DNA from: Candidatus Multivorans sp. | GTDB taxonomy: Bacteria; Acidobacteriota; Thermoanaerobaculia; Multivoradales; Multivoraceae | Assembly: GCA_965224025.1 (NCBI GenBank) | Contig: OZ245033.1 | Span: forward strand, 1,760,001 to 1,824,000 | DNA length: 64,000 nucleotides | Reading direction: 5' to 3' | Shown: piece after piece, positions 47,207-50,660 of the stretch | How positions within the stretch are numbered: the first letter of the stretch is position 1 | Layout: every line of letters starts with the position of its first letter | Made by a program: the position numbers and the translations under genes | Notes under the pieces: generated by a model | The model's database searches: none | The model's input: only the letters and a program-made list of their open reading frames with translations | What the model was told of the DNA's origin: nothing

Positions 47207-47236
47207 TTGACGGGCGCCATACGGGCGGGGTAGCGT
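47207..47236 (+). promoter_or_regulatory. Sigma70-like promoter
   Basis: TTGACG-N18-TAGCGT; the conserved RNA motif starts 7 nt downstream. Confidence 0.55.
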
Positions 47237-47242
47237 CCGTCT

Positions 47243-47378
47243 GTTGGTCGTCAGAGGCGCAGTGGGCCTGCGAGCCGGACCCCCTGCCAGACCTAGCCGT
47301 CGCCCCTGGGCTTAGGGTCGCTCCCTTCGTCAGGCGAGTCTGCGGGGGGTCTCGTTTGCCCTGTGCAGTGCGGCCGAT
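47243..47378 (+). ncRNA. Candidate structured RNA, copy 1
   Basis: 5' ~45 nt nearly identical to 50527; the ends pair; internal GACCCCCTGCCAGAC/GTCTGCGGGGGGTC stem. Confidence 0.5.
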
Positions 47379-47448
47379 TCGGCCCGCCACCAGTCCAGGT
47401 GCCGGCCCACCTTCCCCCAAAGCCGGCTAGAGCGACTCCAAGGACTCG

Positions 47449-48727
47449 ATGGCGACCTTCACGAACCCGAGCAGCCGGGCGGACCTGCTGCTGACCCTTG
47501 CGCGGCTGTCGTTCCCGGACGCCGTACGGCGGGCCAACCAGCCCGTGGCGGTGGCGATCCTGATCGCCGTTCTGTTTCTGGTGTTCGCGACCGTCGCCAC
47601 ATTCGGCCTTCTGCCCGTTCTGTTCACCCTAGAGAGCGACGCCCTGCAGCGCAATCTGCTGAACCTGATGGCCTGCTCCGCTACGGCGTTCGGGCTGCTC
47701 GCCCAGGTGGCACTCCGAGCACCGACCACGTGGCTGCTCGATCTGGACGACCTGCTGCGGCTGCCGGTGGGTTTCCGAGACCTGTACGGTCTCCGTTTCG
47801 CTCTGAGTACGATGGGGTACTGGCTCCTTGTTCTCGGTCCCGCAGGCGCCTATCTCACGGTCATGAGGTCGGGAGGGATCGCCGGAGTACCCGTCACGTT
47901 GCTGGGCATCGTGAGCCTGGTCTGGATCTTCGGCCGTGTGGTTGCGGTCTTGTCGCTCTTCGCCGACCGTTGGGTCGAAAGTGCGCTCACCATACTGGCC
48001 ATGATGATGATCATGGCGCTCTGCCAGTTTGCGATCCTCGTCGGCGTAATGGCCTTCGGAGGAGAGCTCGATTCCGAAGGGGTCGCTCGGGCAATCGAAG
48101 GTTCTTCAGCTCTCGGCGGCCTCGGCTACACGCCGCCGGGACTTGTCGCCGGAATCGTCCACGAACCGGGCTGGTCGGCGTCGAATCTGGCGAGACTCGG
48201 AAGTCTGTTTGCCGCTCTCGGCGTCTTGATCGTGCTGGAGAACCGGCTCCTTCTTCGCAGCTACCTCGATCATCCCGGTGGTGACCGCCGCGCCGCTTCT
48301 GGAGTACTGCCTCTGGCGCGGATGCTCCGCGGGTCGCGCCGCCTCAGTTCCTTGGGCGTTCTCACGGTGCTCGAGACGGAATGCCTGTTGCGTGCCCAAG
48401 AGGATACCGGCGACCATCAGGCAGGACGCGACGAGGAAGAACGGCCAGCCGAACCAGTCGAGCGGCGCGAAGTTCGGGGCCTCCCTTCTGGTTCCGCAGC
48501 TGGCCCTTGGCCCAGCCTTCCTCACCTTCCTTCTGTACGTGCTCTACGACGGGCAGCGCGTCAGCCCACTCACTGCCGGCCTCATCGCCGCCGCGGTCCT
48601 CCTCCTCGCTGCCGTTGCCGCATACGCCTCGCCCCGGCGGCAGGAACGCGTGCTCAAGGCGCGCGGACGCGAACTCCTGCTCGAAGACCCCGCCGAAGAC
48701 CCTCCGAAGCTACCGAGCCCCTCCTGA
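47449..48727 (+). pseudogene. Second permease paralogue with an internal deletion/frameshift near 48395
   Basis: Aligns by eye to the 45521 protein up to LTVLETEC; the C-terminal helices (GAKFGASLL...RRQERVLKARG) continue in another frame. Confidence 0.7.
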
Positions 48728-48758
48728 CCACTCACAACCACGAGGAACTCCGAAACTC

Positions 48759-49547
48759 ATGGAAGCAATCAAGGCAGACAACCTGACTCGGTCCTTCGGC
48801 GGCAACGTCGTCGTCGACAGCGTGGATCTCGACGTCCAGGAGGGTCAGATCCTGGGGTTCGTCGGTCCCAACGGGGCGGGCAAGACGACGACCTGGTCGA
48901 TGCTGACCGGGCTGCTCAAGCCCACGAGCGGCACGGTCCGCCTGCTGGGCAAACCGGTCGACGTGAACGACACGGAGCTCAAGCAGCAGCTCGGCATCGT
49001 GCCGGACCAGAGCATCCTCTTCGAGAGCTTGACCGGAGAGGAGTTGCTGCTGTCGTACGCCCGCATCTACGGCCTGAGCCGCGAAGACGCCGGGCAACGA
49101 ACAGACGAGGCGCTCGCCGTTTTCGACCTCGAGGAGGCCGCCAAGCGACCGATCACCACCTACTCCCACGGTATGAGAAAGAAGATTCGCCTCGCTGCGG
49201 CGACCCTGCACGCGCCGCGAGTTCTGTTTCTCGACGAGCCGTTCGAGGGCATGGACGCCCTCAGCGCGCGCACCGTCATGTCGATCCTGCAGCAGATGGC
49301 CGAGCAGGACGGCGTCGCCGTGTTCCTGACGTCCCACATGCTCGACTACGTCGAACGCGTGTCGAGCCATATCGCCGTCATCCGGGACGGCAAGGTGCTC
49401 CTGTCCTGCTCCCGGGAGGAGTTCCGCGAGCTGCCCGACGCCGAGGGAGAAGACGGCGCCGGTCGGCTCGAGAACCTCATTCTCAGTATCTCCAGACGCG
49501 AGAGGTTCTCCCGCCTCTCGTGGATCGGCAACAGGAGCAAGACATGA
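48759..49547 (+). CDS. ABC transporter ATP-binding protein
   Basis: GPNGAGKT; YSHGMRKK signature; LFLDEPFEGMD; LTSH. Confidence 0.93.
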   Translation: MEAIKADNLTRSFGGNVVVDSVDLDVQEGQILGFVGPNGAGKTTTWSMLTGLLKPTSGTVRLLGKPVDVNDTELKQQLGIVPDQSILFESLTGEELLLSYARIYGLSREDAGQRTDEALAVFDLEEAAKRPITTYSHGMRKKIRLAAATLHAPRVLFLDEPFEGMDALSARTVMSILQQMAEQDGVAVFLTSHMLDYVERVSSHIAVIRDGKVLLSCSREEFRELPDAEGEDGAGRLENLILSISRRERFSRLSWIGNRSKT

Positions 49548-50323
49548 CCGAGCCTTTCCAAGACACCGACGGCCTGCGCCGGACCGGGCCGACCGGAGAC
49601 CAGCCGCAGGACCGCGGAGGTTGGCCTAGCGCCTTGATCGGGATCGTCACCTCGCCGCGAACGAGCTTCGAGATCGTGCGCCGGAGGGCACCCTGCCTCG
49701 GTGTTGTCGTCCTCCTCCAGGCCAGCGCCGTCTGCCTTGCACTGCTGTCGTCATCGTTCGGCCTCCAGGTGCGGCGTGCCCAACTCACTGAGATGATGCC
49801 GGGACAGCCGGACCAGGTCGAAGCCTTGATGGCCCAGGCGGAGCAGTCGATGGCTGTGACGCGATCGATCGCGGCCGGCGGCGCCGCTCTCCTGACGGCT
49901 ATCGTCTTGCTCGTGCAGGCCGTGTTCGTCTGGCTCCTGGCGATTGCGTTCCAGGGCCGCCCGCGGTTCGGACAAGCCCTCTCGCTGATGGCGCACGTCG
50001 GCGTGATCGCCCTCCTCAGGAACTGGGCCAACTTTGGCCTCCTCCACTTTCGGGACCTGAGTGCGATCCGATCGCCGCGGGACCTGCAGGTCCCAATGGG
50101 AATCGACCTCTTCCTGGCAGGAGACAGTGCCGCGCTCAACGCGGTCTGGGCAAGCATCAACCCGTTCACGATCTGGCTCCTCGCACTGCTTGGCCTGGGC
50201 GCCGCGGCGGTCCTCGGTCTGTCGCAAAGGCAGGGTTTCACGCTCGCCGGCATCTACTGGGCGGCGACGACCACGCTCTCCGCGGCAGCGGCAGGCGTGG
50301 CTAGCCGCCTCACGCCCGGGTAG
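49544..50323 (+). CDS. Yip1 family membrane protein
   Basis: GIVTSPRTSFEIV; ~5 TM; FGQALSL; INPFTIW; ATGA overlap with the ATPase gene. Confidence 0.75.
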   Translation: MTEPFQDTDGLRRTGPTGDQPQDRGGWPSALIGIVTSPRTSFEIVRRRAPCLGVVVLLQASAVCLALLSSSFGLQVRRAQLTEMMPGQPDQVEALMAQAEQSMAVTRSIAAGGAALLTAIVLLVQAVFVWLLAIAFQGRPRFGQALSLMAHVGVIALLRNWANFGLLHFRDLSAIRSPRDLQVPMGIDLFLAGDSAALNAVWASINPFTIWLLALLGLGAAAVLGLSQRQGFTLAGIYWAATTTLSAAAAGVASRLTPG

Positions 50324-50491
50324 CCGCCTCGCCTCCGGCGATCGCCGGGGACGAGCCGAAACCCGCCGGTCACCGCCATCCAGCGCCGGGGCGCGCCCCA
50401 GGGGCTGGATCGCGGGTGGGCCCGTGCCAGCTCGAAGGAACACGACCCTTCCTGGACGGCCGGCCCGATCGGCCTGCGGCAGACCGCTCGT

Positions 50492-50520
50492 TTGACGCTT
50501 ACAGACCGACGCGGTAACTT
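50492..50520 (+). promoter_or_regulatory. Sigma70-like promoter
   Basis: TTGACG-N17-TAACTT; the conserved RNA motif starts 7 nt downstream. Confidence 0.65.
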
Positions 50521-50526
50521 CGCTTG

Positions 50527-50660
50527 GTTGGTCGTCAGCAGCGTAGTGGGCCTGCGAGCCGGGTCCCCTGCTGAATAGAAAAGCCGATTCAAGGTGCAGG
50601 GTCGCTCCCGGCGCTCGGCAAATAGGCAGGCGTACGTGCCCACTGTGCATGGCGACCAAC
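50527..50660 (+). ncRNA. Candidate structured RNA, copy 2
   Basis: GTTGGTCGTC pairs with GGCGACCAAC; GCGTAGTGGGC with GCCCACTGTGC; CCCTGC with GCAGGG; TGAAT with ATTCA, giving a rod-like hairpin. Confidence 0.55.

Follow-up and report, generated by a model that had tools for sequence, protein, structure and literature searches.

Two paralogous rod-shaped elements at a transporter locus of Candidatus Multivorans as candidate cis-acting 5' leader RNAs

A stretch of 64,000 nucleotides from Candidatus Multivorans sp. (Acidobacteriota, Thermoanaerobaculia; assembly GCA_965224025.1, contig OZ245033.1, positions 1,760,001 to 1,824,000 of the forward strand), hereafter the window, carries two related elements, type A and type B, each predicted to fold into a long rod. 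The elements are real, strongly conserved and non-coding, belong to the plus strand, and form a diverged pair at one fixed locus. We read them as an uncatalogued, lineage-restricted family of paralogous cis-acting 5' leader RNAs, possibly operating as a switch between two mutually exclusive helices termed P1 and anti-P1, and we put the probability of this reading at about one half. Type A would head a putative ATP-binding cassette (ABC) exporter operon, consisting of a permease (memB), a DrrA-like ATPase and a YknW-like protein, beside a bacteriocin-like cluster of peptides and a C39 peptidase, while type B would head the next gene, that of a putative secreted protein ("sec"). Coordinates of all features are collected in Table 1.

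An initial annotation, made from the sequence of the window, had proposed two paralogous rod-shaped RNAs, each starting seven nucleotides after a sigma70 promoter and not recognised as tRNA, SRP RNA, 6S RNA or a known riboswitch. The coordinates and motifs of both copies proved to be as claimed, including the seven-base distance between the TAGCGT hexamer and the presumed start of A at G47243, where the shared sequence GTTGGTCGTCAG begins; the presumed start of B is G50527. The relatedness of the copies was likewise borne out. Within the window, blastn aligned a 45-nucleotide 5' block common to both (47243-47287 in A, 50527-50571 in B; 40 of 45 positions identical, E 2e-11) and a 12-mer, AGGGTCGCTCCC, present at 47314-47325 and 50598-50609. 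The spacing is identical, with AGGGTCGCTCCC starting 38 nucleotides after the block GGGCCTGCGAGCC in A and in B. The arms beyond these blocks diverge, yet a closing helix still joins the 5' and 3' ends of each copy. No third copy was detected within the window by blastn or nhmmer.

Neither element corresponds to a catalogued RNA. Rfam 15 (4227 models) gave no match at the gathering score in the whole window, and none to the elements when both element regions were also searched at E≤10. At the latter threshold three chance-level hits appeared, lying mostly or wholly outside the rods: sR035 (9.3 bits versus 233), MIR2907 (14 versus 60) and mir-486 (13.2 versus 69). ARAGORN found no tRNA or tmRNA, and the listings returned by literature searches contained nothing on Candidatus Multivorans or on RNAs of the Thermoanaerobaculia.

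Homologues were sought with the exact 18-nucleotide core AGTGGGCCTGCGAGCCGG against one genome per species, and 96 stretches were returned. Among them, 43 also carry GGGTCGCTC 35-37 nucleotides downstream of the core and one more is interrupted there by a contig end, yielding 44 homologous stretches. These derive from 30 assemblies, all of them metagenome-assembled genomes (MAGs), labelled Ca. Multivorans, Thermoanaerobaculia, Acidobacteria/Acidobacteriota, Holophagales or Vicinamibacteraceae. Because only exact matches to the 18-mer were retrieved, the family is so far confined to these 30 assemblies of uncultured, closely related Acidobacteriota. The remaining 52 stretches are chance matches, several of which read in frame as coding sequence around a WACEP-type peptide. 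A profile search with nhmmer (E≤1e-3) over the fetched stretches and the window produced 80 hits, all in the 44 loci or the window and none in the 52 unrelated stretches. Once duplicates were removed, 29 distinct A and 24 distinct B sequences remained, 53 in total.

The distribution of these copies is highly regular. All 25 assemblies with enough DNA hold exactly one A-type and one B-type element, A always lying upstream of B on the same strand at a distance of 3.3-5.9 kb; the other five contributed 618 nucleotides each, in which the A copy alone was seen. The 13 records titled "chromosome: 1" among the 25 assemblies contain no further exact-core sites, and blastn in distant mode found no similar sequence in plasmid and phage collections. 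One additional candidate was rejected. A stretch from a Phycisphaerae MAG (L022, 2377-2416) shares TTGGTCGTC and the 18-nucleotide core, that is, 9 + 18 nucleotides of the 5' block, at nearly the same spacing. Since its in-frame translation looks protein-coding (..LVVGSHEWACEPE.., ..HEWACEPE..) and the stretch lacks the remainder of the element, this match was counted among those due to chance.

Conservation of both cores matches that of the best-preserved genes in the locus and clearly exceeds that of memB and the Yip1 gene. Measured over 23 loci, median nucleotide identity to the window was 92.0% for core A and 88.6% for core B, as compared to 89.3% for the 3' end of the SNF2 gene, 88.4% for the ATPase, 78.2% for memB and 68.7% for Yip1. 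The 29 distinct type A homologues have a mean column identity of 93%, an 11-nucleotide segment, GGGUCGCUCCC, is invariant in all 53 sequences, and the 18-nucleotide core is nearly so.

Alignments extended beyond the elements, comprising 23 A and 13 B sequences, locate this conservation relative to the flanking genes. In A it runs unbroken from the -35 box through the rod, its 3' tail, two small hairpins and AAGGAC to the ATG of memB, which lies about 207 nucleotides from the presumed start; used as a short query, the portion from 47393 to 47448 aligned in 17 of the 23 loci, with a median identity of 87.7% there. In B it extends from the -35 box to ...GGCCCGGCGCCA and is followed by a spacer variable in both sequence and length. 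This spacer is missing from three of the 13 sequences (L042, L061, L066), in which the sec ATG stands approximately 35 nucleotides past the conserved tail. The position within the 5' untranslated region (UTR) is consistent, with A before memB and B before sec in the 23 loci listed in full.

A separate conserved promoter of the form TTGACG-N17/18-TAnnnT probably drives transcription of each copy. The -35 box matches the consensus at five of six positions, and the -10 boxes, TAGCGT and TAACTT, each match TATAAT at only three. Conservation in the extended A sequences starts at about -38 (ATGTTTGACG...) and is high through both hexamers, and both promoter hexamers are also conserved in the extended B sequences. 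The designation as a sigma70 promoter thus relies on the TTGACG box, the spacing and the conservation from about -38 rather than on a strong match to the consensus. A 9-nucleotide inverted repeat, GACGGGCGC / GCGTCCGTC (47209-47217 and 47233-47241), lies around the spacer and -10 box in the promoter-like region of A. Its arms match at eight of nine positions in the window and at all nine in the homologue consensus. The repeat is absent from B; it could be a repressor operator or a hairpin ending the upstream transcript.

The elements are non-coding. Only one frame stays open throughout the 29 A sequences, and 23 of the 24 B sequences have a stop in it. Variable columns of A are spread evenly over the codon positions of this frame (24/22/23), as opposed to 38/29/61 in the first codons of memB, which served as a control, and its alternative codons comprise 17 synonymous and 67 non-synonymous cases. 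Every plus-strand frame of B in the window meets a stop within its first 17 codons; over the 24 B sequences, a stop is carried by 15, 13 and 23 in the three plus-strand frames. A coding interpretation was rejected on the strength of the missing codon periodicity and the closure in B of the frame open in A.

The minimum free energy (MFE) fold of each copy is an unbranched rod, at -69.8 kcal/mol for A (z -2.08; two of 200 shuffles as good) and -65.5 kcal/mol for B (z -3.58; none of 200). From the ends inward it comprises P1, P2, a pairing of the second CCUGC with GCRGG, two short inner helices and an apical hairpin, GGG-UCGCU-CCC. In A, P1 (GUUGGUCGU / GCGGCCGAU) is weak, with three G-U pairs, and P2 and a long CCCCCUGC:GCGGGGGG helix lead to the apical hairpin. 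In B, P1 (GUUGGUCGUCA / UGGCGACCAAC) and P2 have 11 base pairs each and are followed by CCUGCU:GGCAGG, GCCG:CGGC, GGUG:CGCU and the same apical hairpin.

Covariation supports the unbranched rod in type B only, so that the rod shape proposed in the initial annotation is upheld for one of the two copies. With the rod and anti-P1 taken together, 96.9% of cells are paired among the 24 distinct B homologues and six pairs are changed on both sides, compared to 1.6 ± 1.0 in shuffled alignments, a control which ignores relatedness among the sequences; none of 500 shuffles reaches six, and slid controls give 0-2. The compensated pairs include G-C to A-U (L088), G-U to C-G (L050) and U-A to C-G (L063). 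For the type A rod, 92.3% of cells are paired among the 29 distinct homologues. A single P1 pair is compensated, the divergent A copy of L050 having U-A in place of C-G, and one-sided G-C/G-U and U-A/U-G changes are numerous in this helix. An all-against-all covariation scan was uninformative, being dominated by the single split between A and B.

The structure belongs to the plus strand. When counted on an alternative, branched fold which has P1 and P2 in common with the rod, 94.5% of cells pair on the plus strand, including 362 G-U cells, versus 77.5% if the minus strand is read. This branched fold joins the invariant GAGC-CG-GRYCC with GGGUC-GCUC and CCUGC(25-29) with GCRGG, and accounts for 94.5% of cells over the 53 sequences and 98.1% in B. 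Its two pairs changed on both sides are one singleton and the difference between A and B. It was not adopted, as it has no such pair within B and is less stable than the rod, which is favoured in all 53 sequences, by 6.5-25.8 kcal/mol in the 24 of type B and 12.0-32.0 kcal/mol in the 29 of type A. Two invariant segments, GAGCCGGRYCC and GGGUCGCUC (47272-47282 with 47315-47323; 50556-50566 with 50599-50607), are complementary in the sequences generally, the A copy of L050 breaking two of the pairs. This complementarity might represent a tertiary or transient contact.

A second conserved feature lies just past the rod. Types A and B alike keep a tail of the form GGCCCG.C.CCA with little or no variation, and its pairing with the 3' strand of P1, the anti-P1 helix, excludes P1. 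In B, one inner pair of anti-P1 is compensated, from C-G to U-A in L035 and L037 and to U-G in L052, and the tail is otherwise invariant. In A, 97.1% of anti-P1 cells are paired and the helix never covaries. Constrained partition functions and minimum free energies were obtained for 12 of the 23 A leaders, and in these the minimum free energies with P1 and with anti-P1 forced differ by only -8.1 to +3.9 kcal/mol.

In A, a further partner is available. Nucleotides 5-11 (GUCGUCA) are complementary to the start region of memB, (A)UGGCGAC, with seven or eight contiguous pairs in 17 of 23 leaders, and the MFE fold of the whole A leader in the window uses a pairing of the 5' strand with the memB start. 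A may thus form any one of three helices that exclude one another: P1, anti-P1 and a pairing of the 5' end with the start codon. The start-region sequence of memB, AUGGCGACC, also opens the 3' strand of P1 in type B, making up its first nine bases. In the window, the first nine bases of memB (47449-47457, ATGGCGACC) are identical to the beginning of that strand (50649-50660, ATGGCGACCAAC), and an open reading frame (ORF) from the ATG at 50649 runs in frame into sec. The identity may be due to chance, may be a trace of the origin of B or may reflect a shared partner of the 5' strand.

As to mechanism, control of downstream gene expression by alternative pairing would be the likeliest. The 3' strand of P1 would pair instead with the tail, and in A the formation of anti-P1 would free the 5' strand GUCGUCA, complementary to the start region of the permease gene. 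Some signal, be it a small molecule, a protein or temperature, would shift the balance. Both the switch and any signal are inferred.

Several results weigh against such a switch, or against the leader interpretation more broadly. Support for anti-P1 consists of one compensated pair, probably a single event shared by L035 and L037. Forcing P1 or anti-P1 led to no consistent change in the predicted accessibility of the ribosome-binding site (RBS) or the AUG in the 12 A leaders folded under constraint. The pairing of nucleotides 5-11 with the memB start is reduced to four contiguous pairs in the other six of the 23 leaders; the match is confounded by coding constraint, and B has no equivalent. 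A scan after both copies found no terminator-type expression platform. Covariation in type A does not rise above shuffles (one pair, equalled in 496 of 500), P2 is mismatched in subgroups, such as by C-U in eight of the 24 B sequences, and the whole leaders fold with no unusual stability (z -1.09 and -1.07). The 53 sequences are all from closely related genomes (81% mean column identity), and independent events are few. Finally, we infer the promoters and the starts at 47243 and 50527 from sequence, and a consensus scan for E. coli-type promoters lists no site in 46900-51000.

The closest known systems are P1/anti-P1 translational riboswitches and orphan riboswitch candidates. As in these, a conserved element lies in the 5' UTR of the same genes and the 3' strand of P1 has an alternative partner; transporter genes downstream and more than one copy in a locus are further points in common. 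Unlike riboswitches, A and B form an unbranched rod rather than a multi-helix junction, lack a terminator or a clear helix sequestering the Shine-Dalgarno sequence, belong to no Rfam family and are narrowly distributed, in 30 assemblies of one clade. It is conceivable, if unlikely, that the two elements serve as aptamers of a new class of riboswitch or protein-responsive RNA switch. The rod would then be bistable, and a signal, conceivably linked to the neighbouring bacteriocin-like peptides or to envelope stress, would stabilise P1 relative to anti-P1, in A releasing the permease start codon from the 5' end of the transcript. Such an arrangement would place an immunity-type ABC exporter and a secreted protein under RNA-level control.

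The elements might instead be passive hairpins for stability or processing at the 5' end, blocking 5'-end-dependent decay or presenting an RNase III site that sets transcript half-life, with no signal sensed. Both rods are long and have a paired 5' end at the presumed +1, and the greater stability of the rod across the 53 sequences fits this account, as do the absence of any aptamer-like multi-helix junction backed by covariation and the lack of a consistent link between the P1 state and predicted RBS accessibility. RNase III is known to act on leader hairpins such as those of pnp and rnc, and these leaders, along with the Actino-pnp motif, resemble A and B in presenting a long, near-continuous hairpin at the 5' end of an mRNA, which could govern its stability. 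They differ in that the genes downstream of A and B encode a transporter and a secreted protein, in that no Rfam hit was obtained, and in a degree of invariance beyond what a cleavage hairpin needs. Generic hairpins require no such constancy of sequence as is seen in GGGUCGCUCCC and the core, and this account leaves unexplained both the conserved tail past the rod in the two types and the retention of a shared core by two paralogues whose arms diverge. We therefore regard it as improbable.

The initial annotation had offered a small RNA (sRNA) or a 5' leader as alternatives, and it is the placement as leaders, before the transporter operon and before the secreted-protein gene, that stands. Independent sRNAs or stable 5' UTR fragments, acting in trans on other mRNAs or binding and titrating a protein in the manner of 6S or Y RNAs, would account for the discrete island of conservation formed by B, after which a variable spacer follows in 10 of 13 extended sequences, and for the presence of promoter-like sequences before both copies. 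A free-standing sRNA is nevertheless made less likely by the absence of any terminator-like site 3' of A or B in the scan and by the conservation of A into the start codon; B, moreover, abuts the start codon in three of 13 sequences. Complementary sites in the window are not in excess, with four for an 11-mer with one mismatch (6.0 expected) and 11 for a 12-mer with two mismatches (6.9 expected; eight of 100 shuffles reach 11). Y RNAs, YrlA and 6S RNA are similar in length (approximately 100-180 nucleotides) and likewise have both ends in a long stem with internal loops. The end stem GGUC...AGUGG / CACUG...GACC resembles the Ro-binding stem of Y RNAs. However, a scan of 41 window ORFs detected no TROVE/Rsr domain, Rfam at E≤10 returned neither Y_RNA nor 6S nor any other family matching the elements, and A and B are contiguous with a coding region and without a terminator. 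On balance, we consider independent RNAs quite unlikely.

Antitermination RNAs offer another comparison. Phage HK022 putL/putR and the EAR element also involve structured elements situated right after promoters, with A and B resembling them as two paralogous copies at the head of neighbouring units; they differ in that B heads a single gene and that no terminators to be overridden were found near A or B. Function at the level of DNA, as operator or promoter modules, recombination sites or remnants of mobile elements (miniature inverted-repeat transposable element or insertion sequence end), is very improbable: the most conserved stretch of A does include the promoter-like region with its inverted repeat, which could be a protein-binding site, and each element has terminal inverted complementarity, but the pairing tolerates G-U and not the equivalent C-A, and compensated pairs are present. 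The mobile-element derivation suggested earlier is not supported, given the single syntenic location of the two copies in 25 of 25 assemblies, the lack of dispersed copies and of plasmid or phage matches, and the absence of transposase families among the scanned ORFs beside the elements.

The neighbourhood of the elements was examined by tblastn with the window proteins, and statements on order apply to the loci listed, 23 of them in full. Order and strand are constant across these loci. From 5' to 3', an SNF2 helicase, a redoxin, a stand-alone C39 peptidase and a varying number of small secreted peptides are followed by memA in some loci, A, memB in one or two copies, the ABC ATPase, one to three Yip1-domain proteins, B and sec, and then by DUF6152 and a 323-residue protein, both on the opposite strand, and an acidobacterial VWA protein. 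The redoxin and C39 genes are present in every listed locus whose flank extends that far, while the peptides and memA are variable. The C39 peptidase, which carries a membrane segment at its N terminus, is similar to the peptidase domain found in bacteriocin exporters. Within the bacteriocin-like cluster (43060-45405), one peptide has a double-glycine-type leader (..ELAQLTGG/A..) and another a Pro/Cys-rich tail.

Families were assigned with Pfam and NCBIfam, and neighbours in the language-model Atlas were taken as leads only. The ATPase hits the NCBIfam drrA subfamily (E 5e-65) and the Yip1 protein YknW_fam (E 2.3e-19), both below the curated cut-offs. MemA, a paralogue of memB, as well as memB and sec have no Pfam or NCBIfam family above threshold; the Atlas neighbours of memB carry ABC_export / 12TM_1, and those of sec are all unnamed families. 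An intact memB ORF of 566 residues occurs in L004 (8103..9803). No transcription-factor or two-component family was found by Pfam or NCBIfam among the locus ORFs scanned.

Table 1. Positions in the window of the two elements, their flanking sequences and the adjoining genes.
Feature	Position	Strand	Details
Promoter-like region of A	47207..47236	+	TTGACG 47207-47212, 18-nt spacer, TAGCGT 47231-47236
Type A rod RNA	47243..47378	+	136 nt
Conserved 3' tail of A, UCGGCCCGCCACCA	47379..47392	+	Can pair with P1 3' strand
Rest of A leader	47393..47448	+	Hairpin CACC-AGUCCA-GGUG; hairpin GCCGGC...GCCGGC with C/U-rich loop; AAGGAC 47440-47445 before ATG 47449
Promoter-like region of B	50492..50520	+	TTGACG 50492-50497, 17-nt spacer, TAACTT 50515-50520
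Type B rod RNA	50527..50660	+	134 nt
Conserved tail of B, AAGGCCCGGCGCCA	50661..50674	+	3' arm of alternative anti-P1 hairpin
Variable spacer of B	50675..50798	+	Then AAGGAGG 50783-50789 before ATG 50799
Upstream context	43060..47143	+	Redoxin 43060-43566, C39 peptidase 43575-44177, three small secreted peptides 44232-45405, memA 45521-47143
memB, putative ABC-exporter permease	47449..48727	+	First gene 3' of A; two frames in window
ABC transporter ATPase, DrrA-like	48756..49547	+	Pfam ABC_tran E 2.4e-30
Yip1 / YknW-like membrane protein	49520..50323	+	Last gene 5' of B; Pfam Yip1 E 1.5e-9
sec, secreted protein without family	50799..51417	+	365 aa in L004 (11876..12997); two frames in window

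Further features of the window are recorded here for completeness. The ORFs of memB (47449-48786 and 48278-48727) and sec (50649-51560 and 50935-51417) are split in the window and are single ORFs in relatives, and a PQQ-dependent dehydrogenase (28533-29729) is also in two pieces; the split genes are either real pseudogenes or assembly indel errors. A SNF2-family helicase of 1205 residues (38923-42540) is found directly 5' of the peptide cluster in related loci whose flank extends that far, and a helicase resembling a type I restriction R subunit is located at 15218-18280. The window contains Planctomycete-type PSCyt1/PSCyt2/PSD1 and DUF1501 genes (2648-11405) and a WD40/PSCyt1 protein (52899-54815). 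The acidobact_VWFA domain (TIGR03436) and the related loci indicate an acidobacterial genome.

If A and B serve only as stabilising hairpins, their biology would be ordinary, yet an unusually strict conservation of sequence would still call for explanation. If they are regulatory leaders, they would constitute a further family of structured RNAs, in a lineage for which metagenome-assembled genomes are the only source. Bacteriocin-type genes are usually under the control of protein regulators, and the present reading, if true, would link a peptide locus of this type with regulation by RNA. A pair of diverged paralogues sharing one core, together with the three exclusive pairings suggested for A, provides a testable design.

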